Shown piece after piece: positions 11,107 to 37,516 of a DNA stretch of 64,000 nucleotides (the first letter of the stretch is position 1; every line of letters starts with the position of its first letter). The position numbers and the translations under genes are program-made. Below the pieces are notes generated by a model. It saw only the letters and a program-made list of their open reading frames with translations. It was not told where the DNA came from and made no database searches. This DNA is from a virus: positions 6,539 through 70,538 of the IMG/VR virus record IMGVR_UViG_3300034418_010679. One strand, written 5' to 3'.

Positions 11107-12117
11107 TTATGCTAGAGTGCGCTCAACCAATGAGCCAGATGGTGGGTAGTAGAACTCGTAGTCGTCATAAACTCTGAAAAAGTCGCACCATCCTTGTAGG
11201 TTGTCTGAACCTGCAACGTTGTTCATTAGAAAACCAATGTAGGGTAACTCACCAGCATAAGTTCTTTGAACTAGTTGATACCAGCCAACACCATCGGCTG
11301 AGTGGTCGAAGTTATAAGTGGTCGTGTTTGTACCGTTGTTATACGAAACTCGGATTCTTAAATAAGAAAACGACCTGTAAATGTTATTTACGTTTGCTCC
11401 ACCGTAAGAAGTGTAGTTGTTCCAAATTTGGGCTCGGGCTTGAAAAGTGCTTCCCTCACGAGCAACAACACAGTTCCATGCTTTTGCGGTTGTTGGGTTG
11501 GTGGCAATATCTTCTGCAATAAAAATACCAACATTTGGAAAGTCGCTGGCATCAAGAGAAACCCAACTCACCTTTGACCAAAAAGCATATGTGTAGTCGC
11601 TGCCAGGATTTGTTGGTGCCGACTTATAAATACCAACAAGTCTGTCGCCTGGGACTGTGGCACAGTCTAAAACAAGCATTTGTTGGGCTGTTTGGGTTGT
11701 CGCAGAAAATGTAACACTGCCTGCATTCCAAGTAGACCAGCCCGAAAGAGAGCCTGTAAACTCATCATCAAGGGCATTGGCTGTGCCAGGAGGAGCCATA
11801 GCATCCCATTGGTTGTATGTTGTGCCTCCACCGCCACCAGTGGCTGCGATGGTTAGAGTATCCGTACCTGCGTTGGTTGTAAGTGTAATACCAGAACCAG
11901 CAGCAAATGTGATAGAGCCTGATGGTGAATCCGCAAGAATATCGCTCTGTCCAGAAACAGAGGCTGTGGCAAAAGCGTTTGTTGAAGAGCCTCCACCACC
12001 ACCTGTGGAAGAAATAGTTATTGTACTTCCGTCGCTAGATAGAGTAACGTTAGAACCAGCCTCAAACGAGCCAGATATTTTATTGAATAGCTGCTGTGGG
12101 CTGTACTTAAACGACAT
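11107..12117 (-). CDS. Fibre/adhesin-like virion protein with C-terminal beta-sandwich (lectin-like) domain
   Basis: Start moved to ATG 12117 (TAATG overlap). Two AGS.+TL....T+TI..TGGGGG fibre repeats, then DDEFTGSL..W and HSADGVGW, typical of ConA-like domains. Confidence 0.65.
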   Translation of the reverse strand: MSFKYSPQQLFNKISGSFEAGSNVTLSSDGSTITISSTGGGGGSSTNAFATASVSGQSDILADSPSGSITFAAGSGITLTTNAGTDTLTIAATGGGGGTTYNQWDAMAPPGTANALDDEFTGSLSGWSTWNAGSVTFSATTQTAQQMLVLDCATVPGDRLVGIYKSAPTNPGSDYTYAFWSKVSWVSLDASDFPNVGIFIAEDIATNPTTAKAWNCVVAREGSTFQARAQIWNNYTSYGGANVNNIYRSFSYLRIRVSYNNGTNTTTYNFDHSADGVGWYQLVQRTYAGELPYIGFLMNNVAGSDNLQGWCDFFRVYDDYEFYYPPSGSLVERTLA

Positions 12118-12554
12118 TATTTTCCCGCCTGTGCTGCTGCGTAGAAAATACCGATGGACAGACCAACGCCTGCTACAAAGCCACCCACAAACCAAAATCT
12201 GCTATAATCTGGTTTTGTAGCCTTGTCAAGTGCTTTTTCTAATCTTTTTACCTCGGCATTTTTGAGGTTCATTAAACTGTCGTGTTTGTTTTGCGCTGTT
12301 GTTTTCTCGATGGTGAGAAAGCGCTTATCGAAGTCACACTCTGCTTTTAGCTTTTTAATGGTGTAGTTTTTGTCTATCTCGCAGATTTTTACGGCAGACT
12401 CTCTCTTTGCTGCCATAGTTGCTTCTGCTTTCTTGTCGAAAAGAATACCATCAAAGGGTGCGGTCTGTCCTTTCTTTATTGCCGCAACCTTCCCGTTCGC
12501 AAAGCAAAGGGAAGGCAATAGTGTGAGTAAAAGTATTATTGTTATTTTCTTCAT
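12117..12554 (-). CDS. Secreted/membrane protein, possible spanin partner
   Basis: N-terminal signal peptide, APFDGILF motif, coiled coil and a Gly-rich C-terminal TM helix. Third gene of a lysis-like cassette. Confidence 0.5.
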   Translation of the reverse strand: MKKITIILLLTLLPSLCFANGKVAAIKKGQTAPFDGILFDKKAEATMAAKRESAVKICEIDKNYTIKKLKAECDFDKRFLTIEKTTAQNKHDSLMNLKNAEVKRLEKALDKATKPDYSRFWFVGGFVAGVGLSIGIFYAAAQAGK

Positions 12555-13149: not shown

Positions 13150-13191
13150 TTTATCCTCTCTATTCTTCGATAACCTTTATGGTTAGTGAAG

Positions 13192-13198: not shown

Positions 13199-13212
13199 TA
13201 AGAAAGTTTTCT

Positions 13213-13917
13213 TTATTTCACTCGCCAAGATACACCATACTTTACCCTCTTTATGGTTGAAAGCGATACGCCATACATCTCTGCAACTTGTGGGTTGGTT
13301 AGTTTAGTGCCGTTGGCAAAAAGTTCTCTTATCTCTTTTACCTGCTCTTCTGTAAGGCGGGCGTTTGGGTTCTTTGCACCCGTTCTTGTCTTGGCGTATT
13401 CGCTCAGTTTCTTTCTGGTCTCTTGCGAAGGGCTGTTGAACATGTGTGGAAGAATTATGCCCTTCTTTGATTCGCTCAACCTTCTTCTGGTTTCCTCGCT
13501 GACGTGCTTGCCTTTGTTGCCTGCTCTTATCTTGGCTTTGGTTTCTTCTGTGTGTTTTCTTCCAGCAGAGGTTTTCGCTATTTTTTCTTTTGTTTCTTTT
13601 GAGTGCTTTCTTCCCTTCATGGGTGAACCAGCAAAAGGGGCTTTGTTGTAGCCAACTTTTTTGTTGAGGCAACCACTTTCATCTATGACCTGCTGTTCTA
13701 CATCGAGCAGCATTTCTTCTTCTACTTCTTGTAAGATGGAAAAAGTAAACGACTGCTCGCCATACTTTTCCCAAGCTGATAGCAAGTGTTGGTTGGCGTG
13801 AATACCACTCCGCAAGCGCCACCTGTGAGCACGCCAGCGTTTCTCAACATTGACACTGCTTCCTATGTAGAACTTTCCCGTTTGTTTGTTGGTTATTTTG
13901 TAAATGCCGCAAGTCAT
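13213..13917 (-). mobile_element. Free-standing GIY-YIG homing endonuclease with NUMOD3 repeats and C-terminal HTH
   Basis: CGIYKITNKQTGKFYIGSSVNVEKRW..H, GYN, repeated G+KH+EET+.K+S units and an NPNARLTEEQVKEI...VAEMYGVS HTH. The flanking genes are intact. Likely ATG at 13917. Confidence 0.92.
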
Positions 13918-13923
13918 AAAGAA

Positions 13924-13964
13924 ACCCACCTATTTATCGGTTCGTCTATAATAAATAGGTGGGT
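13924..13964 (-). promoter_or_regulatory. Perfect 14-bp RNA hairpin sequestering the endonuclease RBS
   Basis: ACCCACCTATTTAT (13924-13937) and ATAAATAGGTGGGT (13951-13964) are exact reverse complements with a 13-nt loop. The 3' arm on the mRNA contains the SD-like AGGTGG. Confidence 0.8.
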
Positions 13965-13988: not shown

Positions 13989-16900
13989 TTACTCGTCTAC
14001 AAATGCGTGTCCATCTTTTTCTTCTATTGTGACAACCTTATCAACATTATCTTTCAAACTGTCAATGTGGGTAATAAGAAGAGTCGTTTTGAAATGCGCT
14101 CGTAGGATATCTAGGATTCTGGTGAAGCCCTCCATGTTGTTTGCGTCAAGGGCTGTTCCAGGCTCGTCGCAAATCATTGTGTCGGATTTTGGCATGTTGC
14201 TCACATTTAGCAGCGCAATACGAATAGCCATAGCAGCCAAGGTTTTCTCTGCACCTGAGCCAAGCTCTAACGGTCTGGCGTTCTGGTCTTTGTGCTGAAT
14301 AAAGATATCCAGCTTACGCCCGTTGTCCTCAAAATAAACGTTGAAGTCAACAACGTTGGCTAGTACCTCTGTAATAGCCTCGTTGATTACTGGAAGTTTA
14401 TTCTTAATAATACCAAACGCAATACCATTCGGGTGCATACACTTCATAAAAAGGTCGTATGCAGAGAACTCACGACGGGTCTTTTCCAGTTCATTTCTTT
14501 TATTTTGGTTCTCGGTGAGTTGCGCTTGTAGCGAGCCCTCTTGCTTGTGGAGTTTTAGAAGGTCATCACGGCAATAGTTGCACTCCCGCTTTGACTCGTG
14601 AATATCCAACTCCAACTGTCGCTTGTTCTCTTTGAGAAGAGCAGCATTAAGAATAGCCTCTTTGTTTTGCTCGTAGTAGTCCAGCTTCTCTCGCAGTTCT
14701 TCTATTTGCTTTTCTGTCGCTGTTTTCTTTTGTTCTTCTCGGCTTACTTGCAGTTGTAATGAGGTAATGGTGTGCTCGTTCTCCAACACCTTTGTTTTAA
14801 GAGCGCGGACTTTACTAAGAAGATGGTCTGCTTGGCTACTCTCCAACTTCTGTCGTAGAGAAATGCTCTTTTCCTCTGCAACAGCAAGGGACAAGTTTGC
14901 AGCAGGTATCAAGTCTCTTGCGGCAAATGCATTCTCAATAAACTTGCAAGAGGTCTTGTATTTATCTCCACAAGGAATCTCGTCAAGAATACCAATACGC
15001 TTGTTGTAAAGGTCAAGGTTGCGCTCTGTGTCTTTACACTCGTTTAACAAAGAAGTTAAGTTTTCTTTTAGTTTTGTGTTTTGCTCGACTTCTTCTGTTA
15101 AAGCCTTTTCGTCAAACTGTTGAAGAAGTTCTTTTGCGTTCTCCAAAAAAAGACTTGACTCGCCTATCTTTGTATGATAGTTGTTTATTTTTCTATCGAT
15201 ACTCTCGATAAGAAGCTCGGCTGTGTTTATCTGGTTTTCGACCAATGGCGCGTCAATAATCTCTGCTGGAATAGAGTCGAGTTTGTCTTCTGTTTCTTTG
15301 AGGTCTGCTTTTAAGGTTTTTAGTTTTTGCTCCAACTCTTCGCAACGTTGGTCGTTTTGTTCGATAAGAACTAAAACCTCGTCTTGTTTATTTGCGATGG
15401 CTTCTTCATCTGCGTCGAGGTTAAAGGTTTCCAGCTTTTTGAGGTAGCCTTTTGTATCGGCACTTTCTTTCTTGGCTAACTTAAACTTTTTATCAAAGAA
15501 CTCCAAGTCAAGAAACTTTGCAAGAATTTCTTTTCGACGGGTTGAACCCTCGTTGATAAAGTCAAGTGCGCCCAACTGTGAAGACATAGAGGTCGTTAAA
15601 AAGTCTTCCAGCGTGCCAAAGGTGTGGCGAATGCGTGCGTCAGTTCCGTTACGGTCTGTGGAGTCAAGTATTTCTTCCTCGCCTGTGGCAAGGTCGATAA
15701 CGCTAAACTTCACATCTGTGCGTGCCTCTGTGGTTGCTTGACCACGAAGCTTCTTTTCGTATTTCTCACTTGTGCGCTCGACGGTGTATAGTTTTGTGCC
15801 TACTTGAATCTTTACTTTGCCTCGACCACCATTCTTTTTATTATTTACAATATCCACGTTTTTGCGGACGTTCTTTGAGGTAGAGTTGTAAAGCGTGTAA
15901 AGTAGAGAATCTACCACGGAAGACTTACCTGAGTAGTTCTTACCGAAAATGCCTACAAGACCCCGAATGTTTTCAAAGTCTATTTTGTTGCCCTCGCCAT
16001 AACAAAACAGGTTGTCCCATTCAAGGTGTTTGAGCGACCAGTTGACGTTGCGAGCAACTTCCTCGTTTTCCTCGGCTTCTTTGTTGAACCGCTCGTTGAG
16101 CGAGAAGACTTCTTTGAGGAGTTCTTCGCTTGGTTCGTAGTCTTTGAGATAATCGCGGATAAGCTCTTGTTGAACTTGAACGTCTCTAAGATTTTGCTCC
16201 GTAATTTCGTCTGTATGCGCCGAAGATAAACTTACCCCAGCCCTGTTAAGGAAAGTAAGACTTTCGGGCTTGAAGCGCGTCCTAACCACGTCTGTGGCTT
16301 TCCTAATAGTTTCTACCGGAAGCTTGGTATTGGCTACAACACGAACTCTTGCACCGAGTGGTATTTTTGTGTTTTTTGGCACTCTGCCTTTTGCTGTAAG
16401 CTCAATAGTGATAAAGGGCTTTGGGTTTCTAAAAGTGTGGAGTTCTACCTTGAAGTCATCCTTATTATCGATAGTCCAAAGCAGGTAACCTTTATCAAGT
16501 TCTTCTGCGTGGTTTTGCTGGACTGTGCTGCCAACATAACGCACTCGCCCTTCGTCGTCAAGGCTTTGGTTGGTTTTGTGAATATCGCCAAGCATGGCAT
16601 AGTCAAAACCCTCAAAGATAGAAACGTCGTTCTCGCCGTGTTCCATAACCCAACCAAGAGAAGTCTCGCAGCCAGAGATAGAACCGTGGTAAAGAGCAAT
16701 ATTAATTTTATCTTTTCTCGTCGGCTTAACCCAGTTCTCTGGGTCGAACACGGAAAGAACGTTAAACACAATATTTGTGTCCCACAGGGTCTCACCGGAG
16801 TCTTTAAGAAGGTGAATATGCTTGTGGTTGAGCGCAGTCACCAAAGGTGTGATGGCATCTTGACGTGCTGTGTTTCTCAGGTTGCCGTCATGGTTGCCTG

Positions 16901-17141: not shown

Positions 17142-17149
17142 TTGTCCTC

Positions 17150-18591: not shown

Positions 18592-19680
18592 CTATAAGTC
18601 GATGTTGACTTTAAATGTGTAGCCATCTTCCTCGTCCTTTTTGACGGGTCTGGCTAGTTTGGCAATAGCGATAAGGTTTTTGTTGTCGTCGTAGATGCCA
18701 ATCTTTGAGATGTAGGTGACGGGGGCAAAGGGCTCTTCACCATTTACATAATCTGACTTTACTGCGTTTATAACAGTAGAGCCTGTGGGCTGGGTGTAGC
18801 TCTTTCTCTCTACATTTACAAACTTTGTGCTGCCACTTGTAATAAATGTTGGGTTATTAGAAAAGTTATATTCGTTCTTGCCAGCTTCACAAAGCATTGT
18901 CATAACCGGAACTGTGTTTGTGCCTTCAAACTCCATAACCCATGAACCGGAGTCTGGTGGGTTTGCTTCGTCGTATGGACCAAAGAAAGTCCATTTTGGA
19001 GCGGTAACGCTGCCATCCCAGGTGTCATCAGCAGAGTCAGACAGTTCTGCGGAAGATGAGAGAAGAATAAATCCCTCATTGTAAAGAACTGTGCCAACTG
19101 TTGAGCCTGAAAGGGAGGCTGTGCCGAATGTTTGTATTAGTGCGCCGTTGCTACCTCTGTCCTCTGCTCTGGCAACAAGGGTGCCTGTGAAATAACAACT
19201 AAGTTTTACAGAACCTTTTTTTATACTCTCGCCATAAAAGATGGCTGGAATAGAAATGAGGTTTACTGCCTCATTATCATAGTTCTCATAAGCATAAGAT
19301 GGGCTGAGGTATTTGTAATAGTTTAGTGTATTTTTGAGGGCTCTCTTGTAAGAGTCTGTCATTGGGTATTGACGACTAATAGAAGATGTGAGTGGGTATG
19401 AGCCTGAAATAGTTGCACCAGGGTTTAGTGCGTTGTAGGTTGCTTTCGTTGTAACTGTAAAACTATTTTTGGCAGCGTCTTTTGTTACAAAAGGATAGAC
19501 CAACTCCCCAGATGCTCTATCGACGTTTATCTCATAAAGAGATAATGAGCCAGAAGAAATGTTCTGCCCTTCATTTATTCTATCGTTATAATATGCATTA
19601 CCGCTGTGAAAATCCGCCCTCAAGCGAGGGTGGGTTTTCAAGAAATTAGTGAATACTTGATTCTCTGAAAATTTCTTCAT
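18592..19680 (-). CDS. Baseplate/tail-fibre attachment protein with tail-collar-like C-terminus
   Basis: C-terminal YISKIGIYDDNKNLIAIAKLARPVKK. Paralogous to the next gene (shared EFNYS.NP+ motif). Confidence 0.65.
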   Translation of the reverse strand: MKKFSENQVFTNFLKTHPRLRADFHSGNAYYNDRINEGQNISSGSLSLYEINVDRASGELVYPFVTKDAAKNSFTVTTKATYNALNPGATISGSYPLTSSISRQYPMTDSYKRALKNTLNYYKYLSPSYAYENYDNEAVNLISIPAIFYGESIKKGSVKLSCYFTGTLVARAEDRGSNGALIQTFGTASLSGSTVGTVLYNEGFILLSSSAELSDSADDTWDGSVTAPKWTFFGPYDEANPPDSGSWVMEFEGTNTVPVMTMLCEAGKNEYNFSNNPTFITSGSTKFVNVERKSYTQPTGSTVINAVKSDYVNGEEPFAPVTYISKIGIYDDNKNLIAIAKLARPVKKDEEDGYTFKVNIDL

Positions 19681-20819
19681 TAGTAATCAAGTCTTACCCT
19701 CAACACGTACTCGGTTTCTGGTGTCTTGCGAAGTGGCTCGGAAAGCTTTGCAACAGCCAGTAGTTCGTTGTTGGCAGAGTAAAGACCAACGGTTGTGATG
19801 TATGACACTGGTGTGTCTGTTGGGTCATCCTTTACAACAATCTTTGATGAAGATAGGTAGGATGGGTTTGCTGAGTAGTTGAACTCGTTGTGTCCTGCGC
19901 GGCAGAAGTAAATGGATGAGTTTAGCTCAGTTGTGTTGTTGAAAGAAATATTATCAAGGCGGTGACGGAAGTTGTCTGCAAAATCGTCAGCAGATGCTGA
20001 GGCAATCATATTCTCTAGGTTAACCTCTCCAAAGGATGCGGAGTATTGTTCTGCTCCTGTACCCTCACCAATCACGGGGAAAGCAGCGTTAACGCCTGAG
20101 CCGGTGATTGGTAAAACAACCACACCTGCTTGGTAAAAGATCAGACCAGCAAAAGACAAACCGTTAGTACCAACATTAGCAAATTGCGTGTTGTATGGTG
20201 CAGCGGGTGGTCCAGAAAGTGCAACGCCAGTTTGCTCAGTAACATAAAGAACGCCATATTCACCAGCAGGAGAGTTAATGCGATAATCACTAGCGGCTCC
20301 TTGGTCGGCGTATGTTAGTGCCTCAACGGGATTTGCATAGTTGCCAGACATATAAACCTTTAAAGAAAAGGTGCCCTTTTGAATCTCATCTTTGTAAAGA
20401 AGTCGAGAAAAGTTAATAAAAAATACATTATCGTATTTATTTCCTTCTGTCAAGTCGCCATTTTCATCAAACTTGCGAAGATCGCCATTTTGATCAAAAC
20501 CGGCAAGAACTTGCGCCATGGAGTTGTAGACGTTGACACGCTTTCTTTTATCTGCGGCACTTAGCTCGGTTGCGTCATCGACAGTGCTTGTGTGAAAACC
20601 AACTGTAAGATCGTAGATGTGGTTTGCAGAGGAGCTTAGATAAGGGTAATCAAAAACTGACTCAAACATTCCGTGGGTGTATTTTCTAACATTATCATCA
20701 TTGGGGAATGTTCCGTAAGTTCCTGATGCCAACGTACCAGTTAGTGGAATCGCCTCGTGTAATAATGTTGTTACCGAGGTCTTATCGTTAGCGTTGAATT
20801 TTTTTCCAAATTGTGCCAT
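19680..20819 (-). CDS. Baseplate/tail-fibre attachment protein with tail-collar-like C-terminus
   Basis: C-terminal YITTVGLYSANNELLAVAKLSEPLRK...VRLDY. Confidence 0.65.
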   Translation of the reverse strand: MAQFGKKFNANDKTSVTTLLHEAIPLTGTLASGTYGTFPNDDNVRKYTHGMFESVFDYPYLSSSANHIYDLTVGFHTSTVDDATELSAADKRKRVNVYNSMAQVLAGFDQNGDLRKFDENGDLTEGNKYDNVFFINFSRLLYKDEIQKGTFSLKVYMSGNYANPVEALTYADQGAASDYRINSPAGEYGVLYVTEQTGVALSGPPAAPYNTQFANVGTNGLSFAGLIFYQAGVVVLPITGSGVNAAFPVIGEGTGAEQYSASFGEVNLENMIASASADDFADNFRHRLDNISFNNTTELNSSIYFCRAGHNEFNYSANPSYLSSSKIVVKDDPTDTPVSYITTVGLYSANNELLAVAKLSEPLRKTPETEYVLRVRLDY

Positions 20820-27249: not shown

Positions 27250-28094
27250 TTGTCTTCACATACCACCTTTGATTTTGCGTTTGGTGCTCTTGTAGTAAGT
27301 AGTTCTGCTGAGAATAGTGACTCGGCGCTTTGGTCAAGAAACACTTCAAGGTTTTCGGTTAGTAGGTTGTCTACGTCTTCTCTAATAATTTCTACTTTTA
27401 GTTGCCTCTCGGTTATTTCTTGCGGGGTTTTGGGACTTGTGTCCTCCAAGATAAACAACTTTGGCTGAGATAGTGAAGTGGTAGAGCCTGTCATTTCATA
27501 AACTTCAATCTCAAAGTCCTCAGTAAAGTTGGTGAACTGTGTGTTCTCTTCTTTAAGTATAAAAAAGAGAGGATCTTCCGCTACATAAACCGTGTCTTCT
27601 GATGTGCTGTAAAAGTATCTGTAAGAGCAGGTTATGTTTAGTTGAGGAATGGTCATCGCAGCGTTGTCTACAACCTGTGCAGAACTGGTGAATAGACCAT
27701 TGATGTTGTTTGATAGAATCTCTAAGTCGAAGTATGGGGCTTGTTGAACTTGTGAGTTGTATGAGCCGAGAGGGGTCAAGTAAGGAGACTCGTTTAGGTA
27801 AATATCTTTTTTGATATTTTGAAAGTTTTGTTTACTCGACTTGAAGTTGGCTTGACCCTTTTCAACTGCTTCCTTAAACCTTGCATTTGTTTTTGGGTAT
27901 TGCGTCTCGTCAAGAATACGGTCTTGGATAAGATTTTGTGTTTCTTCTCCATCGGCATAACCAATATCGTAAAGAACATCATCATCGTAAAAAGCGTAGT
28001 ATTTTGGCTTGAAACGACCAAGTGATAAAAGCCTGCGACCCTCGGAGGTTAGTTGAACGTCAAAGACTTCTTCTTTTTTGTTAGAAAATGTCAT
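27246..28094 (-). CDS. Virion structural protein, paralog of the 20832-21806 N-terminus
   Basis: DVQLTSEGRRLLSLGRFKPKYYAFYDDDVLYD resembles DAVLTDLGRKRLSQG..FALGDDEIDY. Confidence 0.65.
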   Translation of the reverse strand: MTFSNKKEEVFDVQLTSEGRRLLSLGRFKPKYYAFYDDDVLYDIGYADGEETQNLIQDRILDETQYPKTNARFKEAVEKGQANFKSSKQNFQNIKKDIYLNESPYLTPLGSYNSQVQQAPYFDLEILSNNINGLFTSSAQVVDNAAMTIPQLNITCSYRYFYSTSEDTVYVAEDPLFFILKEENTQFTNFTEDFEIEVYEMTGSTTSLSQPKLFILEDTSPKTPQEITERQLKVEIIREDVDNLLTENLEVFLDQSAESLFSAELLTTRAPNAKSKVVCEDK

Positions 28095-31000
28095 TATTCG
28101 TTACCTCCACCTATTAGGTTTGTTAAGGCTTGCAGGGTAGCATTGTTAGATAGTGTTCCAGCATCTACTGCTGCGCCCAATGCTCCTGCTTGTGCGGTGT
28201 CCTCTTCAACTGTTTGGTTAACGAATGCTGGTGGCTCATCTGGTGTTGTTGGAGCAATAGTTGCTATCTTTTCTGATAGTTCTATCTGTGAGTCCACCTT
28301 AGCCAACTCAATGAGTGAGCAGAAGTCGTAAGGGTAGTTGTAAGAGTAAGCCAAACGCTTTTTGCCAAAGTCATCGAAGAATGGTAGTTCAGTCTGTACG
28401 CCAAAGGGTTTGAAGTCAAACTGCAAGTTGTCATCTTCAACAGCCTTTGTGATGCGTGAGTATTGGAACTCACCACGCTTTTTCACCTTGAACACGAAGA
28501 ACTTCAAGTCGTCAAAGTCAAGTTCGTTGAGTGCTTTTACGTCGTCCTCAAACACAGGCTCTTTACCAGAGGCGAGAAGCGACTGAATGTTAGCATTAAT
28601 GATGTCAACTGGTGTTCCATCTTCTGCTGTAAGAGAATCAAAACCTGTGCCAAGGTCAATAACAGCCTCTTGCTCAACCGCTGTTAGACCAGCGTCTGGT
28701 AACACACCTTGCCAAATGTTGGCGAGGTCTTGTTGAGATAGTGTGCGAGAGAACTCAAACACGTACATAACTGGCTTTCTAACATTTGACTGAATGTTGG
28801 CTTCTGTTAAGTCTGGTGGCGAGAATGTAACCCAATCCAAGAAAGGTGGAAAAACATATTCTTTCATTAGTCTTGCTTGACGAACCAGTTGGTCATCAGC
28901 GGAAGAAACAGACTTTCTATTTGCCTTCTTCAAAGTTTTTCTAACTGCATCGTTAGTTAATTCAAAGAAGCGAATAGGTTGGTCTTTTGTGTTGTCAACA
29001 TAGTATGGAAGAACAACCAAGCCTTCTTTTAGGTCTCGCGATGTTGCAAGGCGACCAATGGCTTTCTTTTCTTTGGCGATTCCGAGAGCATCTGCGAGTG
29101 AGGCTGAAGAAAAGCCTCGACTAGAAACTTTTGTAAAACCATCGCTAATTTCAGCAAAGACGCCCACGCTACTGTAATCTGGAATTGTTCCATTTTGGTG
29201 CCACATACCCCTTGGGGCAGTTGTTTCACCAAACTGAGGACGGTTGATATCAACTTCTTTAAAGTTTAATATTGGGCATTCATATTTACTGTGGATAACG
29301 AGTTTCTTTCTTGGAGTATCAAATGATTCAAAGTCAACAACATCTCCATCCTCATTGAACTTGATTTTCTTTTCCTCTACAACGGCATCTACAATAAAAC
29401 TTGAACTAATTTGCATGTCATCATCAAGCTGATTCAATGTAACAGAGGAAAGCGACTCAGCCACAAATTCTGGATCTCTTAATAAAACGCTGTATGGATT
29501 CTCAGAGGCTCTAAGATAAGAAATTTGCATCTTTGACACAACTTCTTCTAAAGTGTGTTGCTCCTGAGTAGGTGTAAAAGTGTAACGGGCGCGGGCAAAG
29601 CCATTGTAATATGGTGGAGTAAAAGAGGAAAACTTTCTAGCCTCAACGTGACCCTCAGAGGCTGTTGCAAACGCATTTGAAGCGAAGCCAAAAGCATCTG
29701 CCCTGTCATACATAATACAATTTTTTGTTGGTTCCAGTATGGATGTGGTATCAAGAAACACATCTTTAAATGGAGTAGAGCCTGTTATTTTTGGCAGTTG
29801 TTTTTTGATCTTAGTTGTAAATTCTTCAATAGAAGATATATCGGCGTTTGTTAATGTAAAATCCATTTGATAAGTTTTCGTTGTATCAAATGCAAATGTG
29901 TCCTTTGCTTCTCCTTCAAACGAAACAAGACCTCGCTTCAAAAAGAAATTGACAGTCTCTGCAAAATAGTTGTTTGCAAAAAGTGTGTAGTTTATTTTTG
30001 GTTTTGAGCCCACTGTGGTAAATGACCCCGTGGACGCTGCAAGGTGGTTGGCATCAAATTGTATATATTTTTCCTTGTAATTGCTGTAAGGGTCAAGCAT
30101 TGCTTCAAATGGAACTCTTCTAACCAAGCCGCCGCCGCGAGTATTATTGTCAACGTTTGATGGTGTATCAAAGAAGCGATAATCTAGACCTAAGTATTTG
30201 TTTATAAATGGATAAGATGCAGAATATGGAGTAGGATACTGCAAACCAGCCTCAAACCACCAGAAAGAAGCTGTTGATATCCACTCATTTGTTATAGCAT
30301 CCCCATAATATGTACTAGAGCCGGTATGAGCAGATGTAAATATTCTTACAACCTCGGCAGATGTGCCACCAAGAAGAGTACCAGTATATTCATACATTGG
30401 GTAATCAACGGCTAAACCAGACTTAATAGTGTTAAACAAAATACCGGGAGTCACATAGGGCTCAAAGAAAAATTGTTTTGGATTTTTAAAGCCCAATCCA
30501 TCGTCGTCAAAATTCTCAAGAGAATCCACATAACTTTGGCTTAGTTCTTGTGCAAGTTGAACTGTGCGCTGTTGTGGGTAAAAGCCCTCGTATGGTAGAA
30601 GCTTCAATAGAGCTTTTGCTTTTAGTCCGAACTTCTTTACGCCAAGGCTTGTCTCAGTTTTTAGACCTGCAACGACTTCTGATAGTTCTGCCGAGGAATA
30701 GCGGTTTACCGAGAAATCTGAAGTTCCAGTTAAAGATAAGAAGCCTGACAGTTGTGCTGCAAAGTCAAATCCATTTGATAGATAAGTATCGATGTGGTCT
30801 GTAATCTTAAATTCCGCAACAATAGAGTGGTCTTTACCTCTTCTTCTCAACTCTTCAGCATAGTTGTCGTAAGAGTTGTAGAATGGGTTTCTACCAGATT
30901 GTGAGCCCACTTCCCACAAAGCTTCGCCAGTGTTAAGAATGCCACCTGTAACTGATGTATTTATCACAGAGGGTAGTGGTGAACCGGCGGATTCTGTAAT

Positions 31001-34000
31001 AAATTCAATCGTTCTTCTTGAGTACAGAGGACCATATTTCAGCAAAGAACCGGCGCTGGCGTCGGGAAAAAGGTGAAAAGTGGTATATGAATTTTGTAAA
31101 ATACCTGAACCGGATGGGTTGTTTGGACCATATTTGAAACCAGTGCTTGGATCTTTAGAATCTCCCTCTGGTTTTGTTATTAGGAAGTCATCTCTGGCAT
31201 CCATTGACCAGCGAGACTGATATGGTGTGCCAGATTTACCAGCAAATGAACTAAAGGAAAAACCAAATACATTTGTGGATAGCACTTGTTGTCTGTCTGT
31301 TCGACTATTTCTCCACCATTTGTTATCAAAAACATCTCTTGCTCTTGTTAGCTGCAAGAACTGGTTATCTTTCAGTGGGTAAATACTTGTACGGAGAGCA
31401 ATGGTGTCAACAAAAATTTGTGGTTCTGTGTTCTCGGCTGCAAGAACCCTGTCTAAGAAGGTTGTCTTGTTATCAAGACCATTCTCAAAGTTGGCTTGAT
31501 TTTCTTGAAGTGCTGGCTGGGTAAAGCCCATTTTCTCATTTTCATAAGAAGTTTTCAAGTCAAAGTCTGCTGCCAGGAGCTTGATGTAAAGTGGGTCAGT
31601 TGTACTTACAGGCGTCTGCGTGACATTGTTTAGATGATTTATCAATAAAGTTTCACCGCGAATAACTAACTTGCTTGACGTTAAGAAAGAAATAATATTT
31701 GAGTTTCTATGTGCTCGGACGATTGGGTGAGAATCCTTGCGATAGGCTCTCCAAGATGCGTAACCATATGGTCCGTTTCTTCTTGAGTTTAACGTGCTGA
31801 TAAGTTGTTGAGCGCCTATGAGTGGATCTGAGCCCACGGTTCTAGCATATCCGTCCAAGTCATATGCACCTATACCAAGTGATAATGGATAACCAAGGGT
31901 ATTTTGTGAAGCTGAAACTGGATCTAATAACCAAAAGTTCAGCGGTACAAATGGGTCTCCCAAGAAAGTCGAATCGGATTCTAAAGGAGCGGAGAATTCG
32001 TCATAACCGTATATCAACGTTTCCTGTCCGACTGAAATGTCTGCGCCCTGATTACTGGCAGATAGAAATGTTATCTGTTCATTTGGAGAATATACGCTTT
32101 GAGTTTGATATCTTCTTATGTCCGCGCTTTGGTATGACTCTGTAATCCAAGCATAAGCCAAGTCAGTGGCGGGAATCTGAGTTTGAACATAGTAGTTGTC
32201 AAATACTTTTTTGTCTACAATGTTTGCGCCTGAATATTGTTTTCGTGTGTAACCATTGCGAGCAGTTTTGTGGAAAGATGCTGTAGTTGTTGAACCAGAT
32301 TGGTATCCACCAAATGCAGATGGAATAATCAATAGTTCTTCAAGGGCGTCTCTTACGACCGTGTTACGATAGTTTATGTTGTTGTAGACGGACAGTTCTC
32401 TAGCGGCTGTGTCTAAGCCTCCACCCATTGTTTCGGGACCGCCAGGAGCATTGAATAAACTCCTAAACACAGTTTTATATTTGTTTCTCTCGGGCAAAGC
32501 GTAGTCGAATGTACTTGTTACAAAGCGTGACTGTGCAACACCAGGGTTACCTTCGATGGCAAGATATTTGCCATTAAATGCGCCTTTTTGACCAACGGCT
32601 TGAACAACTTCATAGTCTTCACGGAAGTTTCCAACTGTTGATGAAGCAAAGTTTTTTGGTGCTACACTGCCTTCTCTGCGGCTGTCGTCGGAACTAGTAA
32701 CAGTTTGTACATTGACAATAGAAACGGGCGTTATATTGCCACTCAGGGGCTGCTCGGCACCTATTTGGTATACACTCACATAATTAGGAGTCTTTGCAGA
32801 TGAGGATGCAAAGTTAAAGGAACCTTGGGCGAGGTCACGTCGGTCATCTAGAAGATTGAGCCTAGTTGCAATATTTTGTGTGCTAAAAATAGAACCAATA
32901 GAAGCTGATGGGTCGGGAGTTTTGAACTCCAAGGTTGGGTACTTCAATGGGTACTTGTTTCTTTCCAGAACGTGACTCTCAACAAGGTTTGGAGAATCTG
33001 ACGCAATGTTTGTTGTTGCTGGAATAAGGTTGTCGATAATAGTGTCAACAACTGTGTCTAGCCATTTGAAGTATTTTGTAAACTTTTCTAGTTTTGGGTT
33101 GTTCTCGACCGATTCAAAGTAAAGTCTGCGAAGGTGGTCGAGGTCTTTGTAGTCAACTCTGTAACGGTTGACAGGGTTACCAATGAGGTAGTTAAAGTCT
33201 GTGATACCAGCAAATGCTTTTAGCATATCACCGGACACAGCGTCGTACATGCTCTTGCCAATGATAACAGAGTCTCTTGCTGCTGCTTCGTTTGGTTGGA
33301 ATATTATTGTGGACTCGCCATCAGAGTTCACAACATTTATTGCGGTTGACTCTTCTGGGTTTGTTAGTCTAACTTTTGAGATAAACTCGTTCTCAAATAC
33401 TTTTATATCGGTTGGGAACTCGTAGCCAAAGCCTGTGTAAGTTTTTGCTACTGCTGGACCGTAGTTGCCGAATGCATCAGCGTAGTCAATAGAAGCAGAG
33501 GTTGTGTCTACTACCGAGAACTGACCTGCGGCATCTGGTGATGATACAAGTTCAAAGTCCCATTCAAAAAGCTTTGTTAGATATTGTGGAACAAATGTTG
33601 TATCATCGCCATTTTTTCTGTTTGCGTTCTCAAAAGGACGAATACGACCTTCGCTGTTCTTGTATTTGGCATGGAGGTAAACTTCGTCTTCTTCAAGTGA
33701 GTCGCCGTAGAACTTGCAGTTGCCAATACGAGCATAGCTTCTGTGGAGAATAGAGCCAGTAAAGTTTGTTCTCTCTGCGCCAACGAAAACACGCTTGCTT
33801 TCAGTAGACATGCTATCACCATCAGCAGCAGAAATAGAGGCTGTGATGTTAAAGGAGTTAACTGTAAAGCCAGACTCTACTTGGTATCCTATTAATCTTG
33901 CAACATAATCTTGGTTTGTTGTTGATGCAACATTTCTTGGGTCGCCATCTGGCTCAACTACAATAGCCAAGTTCCAGTTGGTGGAATCAAAAATATCGTA

Positions 34001-36094
34001 TGTGTCAGACTCTACCGCTGTGAAGTGCCCGTTAGATGATGAAAGAACGAACTTACCCTGTCTAACAGTTTTACCACCGTGAACTGCGTATGCAGCCATA
34101 CCACAAACATCTGAACCTGCAAATGTTGTGTCTGTTGGGGATGAGGCATCAGCAGCGTGGACGCCAAATAGAGAGCCACTTGTGTCATAACCAATGTAAA
34201 AATCACTAGCATTAGTTTGTTGTGTTGGGAAGTAAATGTTACTTTCAATGGAAAATGCTTTGAAACCGCCTGTTACATAACTTTGGTTATTTGCGTCAGA
34301 GCCAGTAAAGTTGAAGATGCTTGCCTCGTTTGGCAAGGTTGTTTTGGCTACAAGGTTTTTCAAGCCATAGAAGTCAACTGTTTTATCTTTGAACTGGTCT
34401 ATTTCATCTCTGTTCTCTATTGTTGTTGTGGTATTGTTAGCAAAGTTGCGGAGCCTAATAAGGTTTCCGTCAATACCATAACAATGGAGAAGGTTTCTAA
34501 TGGACTTTTGTGTGCCCTTTGTTTTGTAGATGTGCAGCAAGTTGTTGTAAATGTTGCGGTAGACATGGTTTTTCAAGTCTGAAATAGAGCCGCTTACTAG
34601 GTTTGCTACTGTTGTTTTTTCTTGTATGTCTGCTAAAACATCGGAGCCCAAGAAACCAGAAGCGTCAAAACCACTTCCCTCTAAGAGTTTTTCATAGTAT
34701 GGGAATATTTTTAGGTCTTGGGCTTGGTAATCTTTTCTTTTTACTTTCTCGAAAGAACTTATCTGTGCGTACATTTCATCGAACTTTGCGCCGATGATGT
34801 GTGAGAGGTATTCAAGGTCGTTTGTATCTTGGTCACGAATCCACTCTGGCATTAGCTGGTAGAAACTGTGGTAGTTGTTTCTATCGAATACTCGACCCTC
34901 TTGCACCTTGTCAGCTTCCAGTGAAGCAACATCTGGGTGGTTTGAGTAGATAATGGGGTCTGGAACTTCGTAAAAAGATGTGCTGTATTCCTCAATAGCT
35001 GAACCTGTTGAACGGGCTGTGCTGAGGTAGTTTAGAATACTTGCGCTTGCCACTCGACCAGAGTAGTCAAGAACTGTTTGGTCAATAGACGCAGTTGCGG
35101 TGATACCCTCATTAAACTTTAAGTAAAGACTGAGTGGGTGTGTTTCTGTGTTGGCTGTGTTTGAGCCACCGTAAACATGTGTGTTGTAGTTCAAGCCGAT
35201 TTGTTTTGTTGTTCTTTTTGTCTTCCAGTAGCGGAACTCGTCAATGCCGCCCTTATAGTAATACGTTTGAGCAAAGCCAACATTACCGGAAACAGCATTA
35301 ACCGTCGTAGTTACTGTGTTTGAGTCGGTTAGCTGCTCAGTGTAGACACCATCAACGTACAGAGTTGATACAAGGTTGTCGCTACTGTTCAGATCAAATG
35401 TCAAGGCATAGTGGTGCCACTCTGCATCATATCCGGTAAGAGTGCTGAACGTTGAAAAAGCCTCTGTGCCCCCTGCTGATGAAGACTTTGCTGCAATAAG
35501 CTGCACACCAGTTCCACCGGGATTGTTGAGGTAAATAACAAAATAGTTGCCAGAACTATCAACTGTTTCAAAGATACCGCCTGAAAAAGCTGAACCGTTT
35601 GGCTTCGCCCAAAACTCTACTGTTACACCGGCTTCTGCATCAAAGGAAAGGTTATTCGTCTGTAACGATGAAGAGTTGTAAACATTGTTTACGTTTGGTC
35701 CTGCTTTAATTTCAACTCTCTGAGTTGAACTCGCGCCTTCGTTTAGTGTGATAAAGCCCGTTGTTTTTGGGTAAAGGTCGTTCCAAATGTAGTAGTCAAA
35801 TGTTGTTGACTCATTTAGAAACTTGTAAACCTCAGACTGTGAGCCGTCGTAAGGGTAGTCGTTGTAGATTCTTTGAATACCTGTTTCATAGTGATACTCG
35901 GCTAAACCATAGCGAACATAGTTGCCAAGGCTCGCTGAGATATCGACAAACGCAAATACTTTTTTATCAAAGTCGCTTTTTTGTTTTAGATCGGCAAGAG
36001 TTTTAAAGTCGTCTGAACCGCTAACGTTGATATTAGCCTTTGTTGACTTTAATGCTGTTTGTGATGTTGGTTTGAAAAACTTTTTTAGACTCAT
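28094..36094 (-). CDS. Giant baseplate wedge/receptor-binding protein with LamG (ConA-like) domains
   Basis: 2666 aa. LamG motifs TVEFWAK, WHHYALTF, LYVDG and GGIDEFRYW. Wedge-type motif IYKTKGTQKSIRNLLHCYGI. Confidence 0.75.
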   Translation of the reverse strand: MSLKKFFKPTSQTALKSTKANINVSGSDDFKTLADLKQKSDFDKKVFAFVDISASLGNYVRYGLAEYHYETGIQRIYNDYPYDGSQSEVYKFLNESTTFDYYIWNDLYPKTTGFITLNEGASSTQRVEIKAGPNVNNVYNSSSLQTNNLSFDAEAGVTVEFWAKPNGSAFSGGIFETVDSSGNYFVIYLNNPGGTGVQLIAAKSSSAGGTEAFSTFSTLTGYDAEWHHYALTFDLNSSDNLVSTLYVDGVYTEQLTDSNTVTTTVNAVSGNVGFAQTYYYKGGIDEFRYWKTKRTTKQIGLNYNTHVYGGSNTANTETHPLSLYLKFNEGITATASIDQTVLDYSGRVASASILNYLSTARSTGSAIEEYSTSFYEVPDPIIYSNHPDVASLEADKVQEGRVFDRNNYHSFYQLMPEWIRDQDTNDLEYLSHIIGAKFDEMYAQISSFEKVKRKDYQAQDLKIFPYYEKLLEGSGFDASGFLGSDVLADIQEKTTVANLVSGSISDLKNHVYRNIYNNLLHIYKTKGTQKSIRNLLHCYGIDGNLIRLRNFANNTTTTIENRDEIDQFKDKTVDFYGLKNLVAKTTLPNEASIFNFTGSDANNQSYVTGGFKAFSIESNIYFPTQQTNASDFYIGYDTSGSLFGVHAADASSPTDTTFAGSDVCGMAAYAVHGGKTVRQGKFVLSSSNGHFTAVESDTYDIFDSTNWNLAIVVEPDGDPRNVASTTNQDYVARLIGYQVESGFTVNSFNITASISAADGDSMSTESKRVFVGAERTNFTGSILHRSYARIGNCKFYGDSLEEDEVYLHAKYKNSEGRIRPFENANRKNGDDTTFVPQYLTKLFEWDFELVSSPDAAGQFSVVDTTSASIDYADAFGNYGPAVAKTYTGFGYEFPTDIKVFENEFISKVRLTNPEESTAINVVNSDGESTIIFQPNEAAARDSVIIGKSMYDAVSGDMLKAFAGITDFNYLIGNPVNRYRVDYKDLDHLRRLYFESVENNPKLEKFTKYFKWLDTVVDTIIDNLIPATTNIASDSPNLVESHVLERNKYPLKYPTLEFKTPDPSASIGSIFSTQNIATRLNLLDDRRDLAQGSFNFASSSAKTPNYVSVYQIGAEQPLSGNITPVSIVNVQTVTSSDDSRREGSVAPKNFASSTVGNFREDYEVVQAVGQKGAFNGKYLAIEGNPGVAQSRFVTSTFDYALPERNKYKTVFRSLFNAPGGPETMGGGLDTAARELSVYNNINYRNTVVRDALEELLIIPSAFGGYQSGSTTTASFHKTARNGYTRKQYSGANIVDKKVFDNYYVQTQIPATDLAYAWITESYQSADIRRYQTQSVYSPNEQITFLSASNQGADISVGQETLIYGYDEFSAPLESDSTFLGDPFVPLNFWLLDPVSASQNTLGYPLSLGIGAYDLDGYARTVGSDPLIGAQQLISTLNSRRNGPYGYASWRAYRKDSHPIVRAHRNSNIISFLTSSKLVIRGETLLINHLNNVTQTPVSTTDPLYIKLLAADFDLKTSYENEKMGFTQPALQENQANFENGLDNKTTFLDRVLAAENTEPQIFVDTIALRTSIYPLKDNQFLQLTRARDVFDNKWWRNSRTDRQQVLSTNVFGFSFSSFAGKSGTPYQSRWSMDARDDFLITKPEGDSKDPSTGFKYGPNNPSGSGILQNSYTTFHLFPDASAGSLLKYGPLYSRRTIEFITESAGSPLPSVINTSVTGGILNTGEALWEVGSQSGRNPFYNSYDNYAEELRRRGKDHSIVAEFKITDHIDTYLSNGFDFAAQLSGFLSLTGTSDFSVNRYSSAELSEVVAGLKTETSLGVKKFGLKAKALLKLLPYEGFYPQQRTVQLAQELSQSYVDSLENFDDDGLGFKNPKQFFFEPYVTPGILFNTIKSGLAVDYPMYEYTGTLLGGTSAEVVRIFTSAHTGSSTYYGDAITNEWISTASFWWFEAGLQYPTPYSASYPFINKYLGLDYRFFDTPSNVDNNTRGGGLVRRVPFEAMLDPYSNYKEKYIQFDANHLAASTGSFTTVGSKPKINYTLFANNYFAETVNFFLKRGLVSFEGEAKDTFAFDTTKTYQMDFTLTNADISSIEEFTTKIKKQLPKITGSTPFKDVFLDTTSILEPTKNCIMYDRADAFGFASNAFATASEGHVEARKFSSFTPPYYNGFARARYTFTPTQEQHTLEEVVSKMQISYLRASENPYSVLLRDPEFVAESLSSVTLNQLDDDMQISSSFIVDAVVEEKKIKFNEDGDVVDFESFDTPRKKLVIHSKYECPILNFKEVDINRPQFGETTAPRGMWHQNGTIPDYSSVGVFAEISDGFTKVSSRGFSSASLADALGIAKEKKAIGRLATSRDLKEGLVVLPYYVDNTKDQPIRFFELTNDAVRKTLKKANRKSVSSADDQLVRQARLMKEYVFPPFLDWVTFSPPDLTEANIQSNVRKPVMYVFEFSRTLSQQDLANIWQGVLPDAGLTAVEQEAVIDLGTGFDSLTAEDGTPVDIINANIQSLLASGKEPVFEDDVKALNELDFDDLKFFVFKVKKRGEFQYSRITKAVEDDNLQFDFKPFGVQTELPFFDDFGKKRLAYSYNYPYDFCSLIELAKVDSQIELSEKIATIAPTTPDEPPAFVNQTVEEDTAQAGALGAAVDAGTLSNNATLQALTNLIGGGNE

Positions 36095-37516
36095 TTACTC
36101 AACCCTAAATTTGAATGTATCGGCTGGCTCAATATACTTTCCTTGTAAATAGAGTTTAAAGGAGATTTCATACTGGTAACCTGACTCAAAATCTGCAAAT
36201 TCTAAGTCGGTGTAAGAGCCTGATACATCATAGGACATAAGAGTTTGTTCGTCTGAACCTGTGCCATAGGCAATAATCGTTTGATTATCAACCACTCTTT
36301 TTACTTGGTAATAAACTTTTTCTACTATCTCTGATTCTATGGCAGTTGTAGCTGTGGTGTAGATAGTTGGAGACCAATCACGTTGACGAATGTAGAGTCT
36401 TAGTCTTGCTTTGTCGCCAGTTGTGTATGTTGAGCGCAAGTTGGTCAGGTTGACAACATATTGTGCATCTGGGTTGTATGTCTCGGAAGCAAAGTCTTTT
36501 ACGGTTATTGCCGTGCCGGTGTGGTATTCTGTTGAGCCAGAGAACCAAACATCATAAACCTCAGAGGCTGTTGTGTCAAGTTCTGCTGACGCAGTGTAAA
36601 TACCAGTATCAACATAGCCACCTGTAATGGCTGTTGTGTTGATAGCGGAACCACCAAGTGTCTCGTAGAAATTTACATAGATAGCACCTGTGCCAACGCC
36701 AGGAATGTTTCTCAACTGCCCTCTAATGTTATTGTAGAGGTAGATGGTGTTTGTGTTCTCGGCAGAAGTTGCCAAAGATGAGCTTGCGTAGAAATTACCA
36801 CGGTCGTCGCCCTCTGATGAGTTCCAACGTGCTTCTACTGCTGGTCTTTTGAAAAAATATTCGCTCCCTCTCGCAAAGAATTTCTTCGTGTAGTAGGAAG
36901 AAGAAGCAATGAGGTTTCCTGTGCCGCTTTCGTATGAAGAAGAAAGTTTGACCAAGAAGCCATAGTTTTGTTTTGTTCCTGCGAGCCATTGTTCAACAGT
37001 GTCGGTCACATCAATTTCAAGGTCTTCGATACCTGTTGTAAATGTTTGTGTTTGTTCTGGGGAAGTATGAAGGTCTCCACCAGCCGAAGTCCAGCTTGTG
37101 TATGTTGAGCCATCGTAGGATGCTGTGAGCCAGTTTGATACACCTGTGTCGAGGTAGTCATCCATGTCTAGACCGATGCCTTCGTCCCAAGAACGGGAAA
37201 CAGCATTTACAGTCATAACAAAGTTTGTTGCGTTTGTGCCTTCGTGTGGGGCGTTGAAAAGTCTTAGGTAAAAGCTAACCGAACCAGAGGCTGGAATGTC
37301 TCCTGCTGTTCTTTTTGCAGCAATATCAGTTGTATCGAACTCGACTAGAACGCGGGAGTTCTCTAATGAAGCTGTGGAAAATGAGCCAAACAGCGAATAA
37401 ACTTCTAAAACATCTGCTGCGCCCATGTTGGCGTCTGTGGCTCTTGAAGTTCTAATAGCTCCGTAGCCATTTGTTATTGTGTTATCTTTTGTAGCGAAGA
37501 ACTTTTTGATTGCCAT
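36095..37516 (-). CDS. Virion protein with DNRLRE/CBM96-like N-terminal domain
   Basis: Pattern KDNTI...SRVLVEFD...LRLF...SWDEG...IDVTDTVEQWLAG..NYGFLVK...RPAVE. Confidence 0.6.
   Translation of the reverse strand: MAIKKFFATKDNTITNGYGAIRTSRATDANMGAADVLEVYSLFGSFSTASLENSRVLVEFDTTDIAAKRTAGDIPASGSVSFYLRLFNAPHEGTNATNFVMTVNAVSRSWDEGIGLDMDDYLDTGVSNWLTASYDGSTYTSWTSAGGDLHTSPEQTQTFTTGIEDLEIDVTDTVEQWLAGTKQNYGFLVKLSSSYESGTGNLIASSSYYTKKFFARGSEYFFKRPAVEARWNSSEGDDRGNFYASSSLATSAENTNTIYLYNNIRGQLRNIPGVGTGAIYVNFYETLGGSAINTTAITGGYVDTGIYTASAELDTTASEVYDVWFSGSTEYHTGTAITVKDFASETYNPDAQYVVNLTNLRSTYTTGDKARLRLYIRQRDWSPTIYTTATTAIESEIVEKVYYQVKRVVDNQTIIAYGTGSDEQTLMSYDVSGSYTDLEFADFESGYQYEISFKLYLQGKYIEPADTFKFRVE

Follow-up and report, generated by a model that had tools for sequence, protein, structure and literature searches.

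Does an ocean phage of the T4 type encode a system that attaches sugars to its own tail proteins at a short peptide motif? This question is raised by a 64-kb stretch of DNA (hereafter, the window) that covers positions 6,539 to 70,538 of the 70.5-kb IMG/VR viral contig IMGVR_UViG_3300034418_010679 (completeness rating 32%) and encodes both a cluster of sugar-metabolism and glycosyltransferase (GT) genes and several virion proteins rich in tripeptides of the form [ST]-[GAS]-[ST]. The first-pass annotation of the window took this tripeptide to mark glycan acceptor sites on exposed baseplate and fibre proteins. The analysis described here indicates that the motif is real, specific to particular proteins and, in one related clade, largely lost together with the sugar island; that these serines carry sugars is what we infer from this pattern. 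The motif, in a narrower form, may be the attachment site (sequon) for phage-made O-glycans on distal tail proteins, a reading that we regard as evenly poised between right and wrong.

The window comes from a 'far-T4' myophage of marine origin that has not been cultured. Among its proteins, Pfam and PHROGs recognize a major capsid protein of the T4 type, the portal, the large terminase, gp25 and a wedge protein similar to gp6, and all long open reading frames (ORFs) are on the minus strand. Judging by the portal protein, the closest cultured phages are Microcystis phage Mel-JY01 and Flavobacterium phage immuto (~41% identity), with Rhodothermus phage RM378 being more distant; the complete relatives have genomes of 185-203 kb.

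A serine-directed motif in a subset of tail proteins

The proteins at the center of the analysis are the following, with the number of sites of the refined motif [ST][GAS]S (see below) against the number expected:

18592..19680, minus strand: 362-aa tail-region protein, 9 sites vs 1.8 (p 0.00005)
19680..20819, minus strand: 379-aa tail-region protein, 5 sites vs 1.3 (p 0.009)
28094..36094, minus strand: 2666-aa giant tail or fibre protein, 31 sites vs 9.8 (p 0.0002)
36095..37516, minus strand: 473-aa protein directly downstream of gp6, 11 sites vs 2.6 (p 0.00005)
37516..39324, minus strand: gp6-like baseplate wedge protein (phrog_219, E 7.9e-18), the motif-poor internal negative control, 1 site vs 2.1
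11107..12117, minus strand: 336-aa Ser/Gly-rich protein, 5 sites vs 2.8 (p 0.14), not enriched

Expected numbers were obtained from composition-preserving shuffles (20000 per protein, 5000 for the giant protein). The earlier hand counts of the broad tripeptide proved to be exact (14 in 473 aa, 10 in 362 aa and 2 in the 602 aa of gp6); the exact numbers for the 379-aa and giant proteins are 8 and 39, respectively. In four of the five proteins named as motif-bearing, [ST][GAS][ST] is in 2.1-3.3-fold excess over global and local shuffles: 14 sites against 5.9 expected in the 473-aa protein (p 0.0019), 10 against 3.3 in the 362-aa protein (p 0.0009), 8 against 2.4 in the 379-aa protein (p 0.0021) and 39 against 18.7 in the giant protein (p 0.0002). 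The fifth, the 336-aa protein, does not belong to the enriched set in which it had been included (8 sites against 5.5, p 0.17); its sites fall within a Gly/Ser low-complexity stretch, and no tblastn homologue of it was found in two related records, G009 and G003. Local low complexity was rejected as the cause of the excess in the other four proteins: shuffling within blocks of 10 or 20 residues still gave p values of 0.0005-0.0065, and local composition therefore does not account for it.

The 362-aa and 379-aa proteins are paralogous (25% identity, E 1.5e-12), and there is no BLAST similarity among the three groups represented by this pair, the 473-aa protein and the giant protein. The giant protein contains a concanavalin-like Laminin_G_3 domain (residues 141-299; Pfam PF13385, 55.9 bits), and no repeat family was found in it by Pfam. 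All of its 31 refined sites are located within residues 25-2330, leaving none in the last ~330 residues.

The excess is confined to a subset of the structural proteins. Shuffles revealed no excess of [ST][GAS][ST] in gp6, in the 1570-aa, 959-aa, 833-aa and 324-aa proteins or in the capsid protein (1 refined site against 1.7 expected in the latter), and nine other structural proteins of the window yield 27 observed sites against 26.4 expected. As a control, 20 baseplate, fibre, sheath, neck and head proteins of T4 were analyzed, with 75 sites observed against 69.5 expected; gp18 is the sole nominally high T4 protein (9 against 4.1, p 0.017). A generic trait of fibre proteins was accordingly ruled out as the source of the signal. 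The capsid protein itself (positions 3-1700) is unusual in that the T4-type Gp23 domain covers only residues 286-562, so that an N-terminal part of ~285 residues remains; of its six [ST][GAS][ST] sites, five fall within residues 110-213, with Thr as the last residue in four of these five.

Examination of the individual positions showed that the tripeptide had originally been written too wide: the claim holds for Ser in the third position and fails for Thr. The true signal is [ST]-[GAS]-Ser, with position-3 Ser enriched fourfold and position-3 Thr about onefold. Specifically, [ST][GA]S is enriched 4.1-4.6-fold compared to 0.65-1.6-fold for [ST][GA]T, and among 120 homologues in each of two families, [ST][GAS]S is enriched 3.95-fold and 3.97-fold, as opposed to 0.85-fold and 1.37-fold for [ST][GAS]T (the second value of each pair is that of the 362-aa family). 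When all 1315 tripeptides expected at least once in the four proteins were ranked, SGS (13 vs 2.4), TAS (10 vs 2.4), SAS (10 vs 2.6), TGS (9 vs 2.2) and SSS (11 vs 3.2) took ranks 1 to 5, and the same five tripeptides top the lists in two complete relatives. The context of the motif is distinctive as well: among 219 sites from three genomes, aromatic residues or His are in excess at position -2 and Leu or other aliphatic residues at position -1, hydrophobic residues are in excess directly after the motif Ser, and charged residues are depleted.

Two trivial origins of the motif were considered and rejected. As many as 47 distinct 9-mers encode the 56 sites of the window, which rules out a DNA-level motif; the signal is therefore at the protein level. 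A simple Gly beta-turn motif is unlikely given that position 2 is Ala or Ser in 61% of the sites and that [ND][GA][ST] and [ST][GA][ND] are not enriched.

Conservation of the motif in related phages

The phages that share these proteins form a clade whose hosts include at least Flavobacterium and Microcystis and which is highly represented in ocean metagenomes, with more than 3800 homologues of one tail protein. For the 473-aa protein, 3824 homologues with E <= 0.001 were detected among 8000 scored candidates, many of them from ocean surveys, and 607 related loci were confirmed in IMG/VR; the counts that follow cover the best 80 of these 607 loci. The 473-aa homologues are enriched at p < 0.01 in 77 of the 80 loci (ratio of sums 4.14) and the giant-protein homologues in 69 of 70 (ratio of sums 3.42). 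The gp6 homologues are enriched in none of 78 and are in fact depleted (ratio of sums 0.33; the median homologue has 0 sites where 1.6 are expected), which could reflect avoidance of the motif in a tightly packed inner baseplate protein. Within the 473-aa family, the motif Ser is retained in 84% of the homologue cells compared to 51% for other Ser, and position 1 remains Ser or Thr in 78-88%; three motif sites are conserved in 97-100% of 120 homologues, and the others turn over.

When all ORFs of 250 aa or more in G009 (67 ORFs) and G003 (74 ORFs) were scanned without bias, the same orthologues came out on top. Additional matches were the capsid protein, a 443-aa ORF and a 293-aa homologue of the short-chain dehydrogenase/reductase (SDR) gene 50334-51266 of the window in G003, and a 1381-aa protein in G009. 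The latter (72123-76268), located beside the capsid gene, is rich in VTGS, LTGS and VTGD (TGS 20 vs 2.0) and is probably a repeat-domain decoration or fibre protein. Avoidance of the motif in the remaining proteome is not seen overall, although the gp6 homologues are depleted: ORFs of at least 100 aa outside the enriched set contain 96 sites against 106 expected in G009 (0.90-fold) and 109 against 89 in G003 (1.22-fold).

The cultured relatives display the same pattern to different extents. In immuto, or vB_FspM_immuto in full, which infects Flavobacterium sp. LMO8, the proteins encoded after gp6 are rich in [ST][GAS]S: a 369-aa protein has 7 sites against 1.4 and a 1265-aa protein 10 against 4.4, the two paralogues have 5 against 1.6 and 7 against 2.1, a 1053-aa tail spike has 60 against 20.2 and a 373-aa protein 17 against 2.9; no enrichment is seen in gp6, the portal, the terminase or the capsid protein. 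Of the 19 ORFs of 250 aa or more in the last 50 kb of Mel-JY01, nine reached p < 0.01, the gp6-like protein not being among them. In RM378, two proteins are enriched (8 vs 1.7 and 6 vs 1.2). This phage also encodes a UDP-galactopyranose-mutase-like protein, with an unannotated neighbour (NC_004735 112985-115170), ~1 kb from the homologue of the 379-aa tail protein.

The sugar island and the conserved glycosyltransferase pair

The candidate enzymatic machinery is encoded at the other end of the window:

49809..62740, minus strand: hypervariable sugar island of about 13 genes (Pfam)
62737..63999, minus strand: conserved GT4-like (GT-B) protein that abuts the island, half of a GT pair that is core to the clade

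Among the island genes are those for a cupin mannose-6-P-isomerase-like protein, three SDR epimerases/dehydratases, a GT11-like protein, a radical SAM/SPASM protein, Glyco_trans_1_2, GT15, a methyltransferase, a GFO/IDH/MocA oxidoreductase, a DegT aminotransferase, GT1 and GT2. With regard to the GDP-fucose synthesis suggested by the first-pass annotation, one of the three SDR genes encodes a GDP-mannose 4,6-dehydratase (51257-52249, 399 bits), and the other two encode further epimerases/reductases. The claim of at least seven GT genes turned out to be too high for the window, which encodes four GTs above the Pfam cut-offs (55637-56575; 56572-57471, GT15, 63 bits; 60244-61146; 61121-62740), with the conserved GT4-like gene as the fifth; in addition, 53159-53983 falls narrowly below the cut-off for GT11 (22.9 bits vs 23.9). 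The GT4-like protein has no Pfam match of its own and was recognized through its homologues in G009 and G022, which match Glycos_transf_1 (3e-8 and 4e-12); a sequence search of the PDB gave nothing at E <= 1.

The island is flanked by two conserved genes, the GT4-like gene and the homologue of 48612-49289, and its size in other records was calculated from the positions of the GT pair and of the latter homologue. The slot spans 7.6-23.5 kb, with differing genes, in the window and 18 other records, and 0.75 kb in four. Thus, no tblastn homologue of any island ORF in 49809-62740 was detected in G009, where the island encodes NeuB, a CMP-transferase and methyltransferases. Among five islands compared, SDR enzymes and an aminotransferase are present in four and NeuB in three. 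GT15, which had been singled out as a key enzyme on account of fungal O-mannose extension, is found in three of the five; it is missing from G009 and immuto, both of which still carry the motif. The presence of GT2 was also tried as a discriminator and is uninformative (15 of 20 records).

Next to the variable island, the two GT4 genes are adjacent to each other. The partner of the GT4-like protein is a clear GT4 enzyme, which in the window's genome lies beyond the contig end and is present in 21 of 21 records, including 7 of 7 complete ones; the GT4-like homologue was found in 17 of 20 (6 of 6 complete ones). This pair is the only GT set found in every record examined. Both members retain the region of the GT4 EGFGL motif, and the only domains that Pfam reports in them are Glycos_transf_1, Glyco_trans_1_4, GT4-conflict and Glyco_trans_1_2. 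The pair is also present in immuto (gp181/gp180) and Mel-JY01, each of which has extra GTs, and more distantly in RM378 (p013, E 1e-35; p014, E 1e-5). The catalytic GT4 of Mel-JY01 (PP395634.1 83441-84932) is annotated as two coding sequences of 190 and 302 aa that are joined by tblastn, which may reflect a genuine split of the gene, a frameshift or an error in sequencing.

The gene content of the islands bears on two alternatives to O-glycosylation of the tail. First, the motif could be the target of another Ser modification, such as phosphorylation, acylation, ADP-ribosylation or a radical-SAM-dependent reaction, by a phage or host enzyme that merely correlates with the island. Ser specificity in a defined local context would fit any Ser-directed enzyme, and the island of the window includes the radical SAM/SPASM protein (54780-55688) along with a methyltransferase. 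The radical SAM gene, however, has no tblastn match in G009 or G003, two records with an equally strong motif; a Pfam scan of 107 ORFs of G009 identified neither a kinase nor an acyltransferase; and what the islands share is nucleotide-sugar chemistry. We consider such a modification improbable.

Second, the island and the GT pair could act off the virion, on the host envelope or on phage DNA, with the motif-rich tail proteins binding or avoiding the product non-covalently. Phage glycan islands are usually read as tools of host-surface modification, according to the part of PMC12801897 covered here; phage GTs can decorate DNA (Pyle 2024, as cited in the covered part of PMC12619734); and a PD-(D/E)XK nuclease adjoins the GT pair in every genome looked at. 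Against these points, phages of Flavobacterium, Microcystis and Rhodothermus all have the GT pair as a core element, which suggests that the acceptor is intrinsic to the phage; Pfam revealed no flippase, polymerase or ligase family among the island genes; and a tripeptide is an unlikely glycan-binding unit. Given that a ThyA-type hydroxymethylase was found in none of five complete relatives, glycosylation of DNA on hydroxymethyl bases is unlikely as well. On balance, action off the virion appears very improbable.

Loss of the motif in a clade without the island

The first-pass annotation had called for a test of whether enrichment co-occurs with GT loci across related phages; it does, with the qualification that the comparison amounts to one evolutionary contrast: all 19 island-bearing records are enriched, and the four island-less ones are not, or only weakly. 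The contrast came to light in the 362-aa family, in which four homologues with 75-95% mutual identity have 0, 0, 0 and 2 refined sites (the fully motif-less lineage comprises P0166, P0171 and P0193), whereas the other 116 have 4-15. For these motif-poor homologues, the analysis covered tail-region pieces of their contigs, and the status of the island was taken from the closest relatives in IMG/VR, G021-G024. Each of these four records has the 48612 homologue only 0.75 kb after the GT pair and hence no island. In G022, which is 80% complete, no sugar-nucleotide gene and no GT beyond the pair were detected among 73 scanned ORFs of 130-800 aa. The same record encodes a collagen-repeat protein of 779 aa (66965-69304) and, a few genes upstream of the GT pair, a protein with a strong match to DUF2827 (7700-8815, E 4.8e-69).

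The 473-aa homologue of the island-less records contains 0-4 [ST][GAS]S sites (0-2.4-fold), as opposed to 7-18 elsewhere: 0 against 0.9 expected in G022, 1 against 1.2 in G021, 1 against 1.3 in G023 and 4 against 1.7 in G024. The giant protein is enriched 1.35-1.63-fold in these four records, compared to 2.7-6.7-fold in the island-bearing ones, where the 473-aa homologue is enriched 2.7-5.2-fold. The 362/379-aa paralogues of the island-less records retain a weak excess (3-7 sites vs 1.4-2.1).

Among the replacements of SGS are EGE and EGK. In motif-poor members of the 362-aa family, ISGSYP is replaced by IEGEYP or IKGEYP, LSGSTVG by NEGKVAG, LLSSSAE by LLTGDW and TSGS by DYED, and in the island-less 473-aa homologues, KRK or KAS takes the place of SSS, DADK of STAS, IDGA of LSSS and IGT of TGS. 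Drift in GC or serine content was ruled out as the cause of the loss: the GC content overlaps between the two groups (36-40% vs 36-44%), and the Ser content of the giant protein is the same (0.091-0.098 in island-less and 0.092-0.097 in island-bearing records). The fraction of Asp and Glu in this protein is 0.14-0.15 without the island and 0.10-0.12 with it. The 473-aa homologue shows a similar difference (0.14-0.16 vs 0.10-0.13), and there is no consistent shift in gp6.

In a quick tree of gp6, the four island-less records form one clade (support 100) that is nested within the island-bearing marine group (forks with support of 82-90), with immuto, Mel-JY01 and T4 outside. The simplest history suggested by these sequences is that the island was lost once and that three unrelated proteins then shed dozens of motif sites. 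Such coordinated change in proteins without detectable relationship argues for a trans-acting factor that reads the motif and is tied to the sugar island.

Structural context of the motif sites

The AlphaFold2 (AF2) model of the 473-aa protein, with a predicted local distance difference test (pLDDT) score of 81 and a predicted template modelling score of 0.78, consists of a jelly-roll similar to carbohydrate-binding modules (CBMs), followed by Ig/FN3-like beta-sandwich domains; the top fold match is 8wab, a carbohydrate-binding module (E 1.4e-7). There is no single structural context of the 11 refined sites: two are within strands, two at strand ends, four or five in coil 1-3 residues before a strand, and the rest in loops. 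The model of the 362-aa protein is less confident (pLDDT 68.8), and no PDB fold was matched at E <= 0.001; four of the nine sites fall in segments with pLDDT < 50, and most of the others are in loops. As to the possibility, raised at the outset, that the sites are buried beta-turns, the loops, strand ends, low-confidence segments and charged replacements argue for exposure. Replacement of the motif serines by Glu, Lys, Asp and Arg in lineages poor in the motif suggests that these positions are probably exposed and that folding does not depend on them.

These observations, together with the phylogenetic pattern, have to be weighed against an interpretation without any covalent modification, whereby the motif is a lineage-specific style of the tail surface, Ser-x-Ser loops provide flexibility, hydration or contact with host glycans, and the island and the motif were lost together through a change of host type. 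The co-loss is one event in one clade, the enriched proteins are mostly homologous across the clade, and several sites are conserved in position at 80-100%, all of which such a style would accommodate; the CBM-like domain of the 473-aa protein and the concanavalin-like domain of the giant protein fit with glycan contact, and the GT pair persists where the motif is lost. However, the enrichment is observed in proteins without mutual BLAST similarity, and all three groups decay together in the island-less clade; strict Ser but not Thr at one position and free choice between Ser and Thr at another is hard to derive from loop physics; the fibres of T4 lack the motif; and replacement by Lys, Glu, Asp and Arg shows that uncharged loops are not required. 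We consider this interpretation unlikely but by no means negligible.

A candidate system of tail glycosylation

Under the glycosylation reading, the motif is enriched in the putative targets, absent from non-targets and reduced, in the one available contrast, where the island was lost. The following scheme is compatible with these features. A hydrophobic or aromatic residue, followed by Ser/Thr, by Gly/Ala/Ser, by Ser and by another hydrophobic residue, would be presented on loops and strand ends of the distal tail proteins, encoded after gp6, which would be O-glycosylated at this motif in the cytoplasm of the infected cell by putatively soluble phage-encoded enzymes. The island (49809-62740) would supply activated sugars and extension GTs. 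The best candidate for the priming enzyme is the conserved GT4 pair beside the island, as it is the only GT set that no record examined lacks entirely. The predicted outcome is a strain-variable glycan coat on the baseplate periphery and the fibres. In its full form, the proposal, which we put forward tentatively and as somewhat more doubtful than not, is that an aquatic T4-like clade with at least Bacteroidota and Cyanobacteria among its hosts runs its own sequon-directed Ser O-glycosylation, in which the GT4 pair primes and the island builds a strain-specific glycan.

Several points weigh against this proposal. It is derived wholly from sequence: the attachment of sugar, the enzyme that attaches it and the function of the coat are all deduced in this way, and solvent exposure of the sites is deduced from their context and from the replacements. 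Moreover, the hydrophobic, charge-poor flanks of the motif would be unusual for an exposed acceptor. Given that the island-less records form one clade, loss of the island and decay of the motif constitute a single evolutionary event, and both could have followed a host shift. The GT4 pair is intact in all four of these records, where it must have another role or serve the weak residual enrichment. The islands make different sugars, via a GDP-6-deoxyhexose or amino-sugar route in the window and via NeuB and a CMP-transferase in G009, and no gene family is common to all five islands compared. RM378 fits only partly, having the GT pair without an adjacent island and a homologue of the 379-aa protein with 1 site against 1.2 expected. 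Finally, no enrichment was found in Tetrasphaera phage TJE1, which encodes a distant single GT4 homologue and is too distant to carry weight.

The proposed system can be compared with two known ones. Mycobacteriophage virions are O-glycosylated by phage-encoded GTs (Freeman et al. 2023, Cell Host Microbe, as cited in PMC12619734), and the part of PMC12619734 covered here places the glycans on the C-termini of the capsid and tail-tube subunits. As in that system, soluble phage GTs are proposed here to modify structural proteins of the phage itself within the cytoplasm. Unlike the C-terminal sites of mycobacteriophages, the candidate sites lie internally, as tripeptides, in proteins of the baseplate periphery and the fibres, and whereas the mycobacteriophage glycans have been demonstrated chemically, those proposed for the T4-like phage of aquatic hosts with its hypervariable island are deduced from sequence. 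In the serine-rich repeat protein (SRRP) adhesins of Gram-positive bacteria, as described in the covered part of PMC6973325, a conserved two-GT primer, GtfA/GtfB, and variable extension GTs act on alternating serines. The arrangement found here resembles this system in the adjacent conserved GT-B pair with variable extension GTs, in serines one small residue apart and in the proposed cytoplasmic action. Unlike GtfA/GtfB, no DUF1975 domain is reported by Pfam in either member of the pair, and neither is obviously a non-catalytic chaperone, because both keep the EGFGL motif region; unlike the long disordered repeats of SRRPs, as they are portrayed in the same part of that source, the candidate acceptors are isolated tripeptides in mostly folded, beta-rich proteins with some low-confidence segments; and there is no accessory Sec export.

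The motif is not described in the publications retrieved by full-text literature searches on phage virion and tail glycosylation, in which subscription journals were thinly covered and supplements were outside the scope, and searches on RM378, immuto and Mel-JY01, with equally thin coverage of such journals, returned nothing relevant. If the proposal is correct, the baseplate and fibres of these phages would carry a phage 'O-antigen', and the motif would be the first defined O-sequon for a virus of bacteria. Virion glycosylation would then extend from actinobacteriophages to T4-like phages, and a short predictive sequon would allow targets to be read directly from sequence. The glycan islands of marine phages are routinely read as tools for remodelling of the host surface; should they coat the phage's own tail instead, there would be consequences for host range, for escape from receptor-mimicking decoys or proteases, and for the stickiness of the particles. 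With immuto and Mel-JY01 in culture, the question is directly testable.

Additional features of the window

Two further genes of the window are located away from the motif-bearing proteins and the island. A GIY-YIG/NUMOD3 homing-endonuclease-like ORF (13213-13929), with no tblastn homologue in G009 or G003, lies between replication and packaging genes. A single ORF of 1050 aa (13989-17141) combines, according to Pfam, a calcineurin-like phosphoesterase (Mre11/SbcD-like) N-terminus with an AAA_23/SMC_N (Rad50/SbcC-like) body and is retained in both of these records at 46-50% identity.

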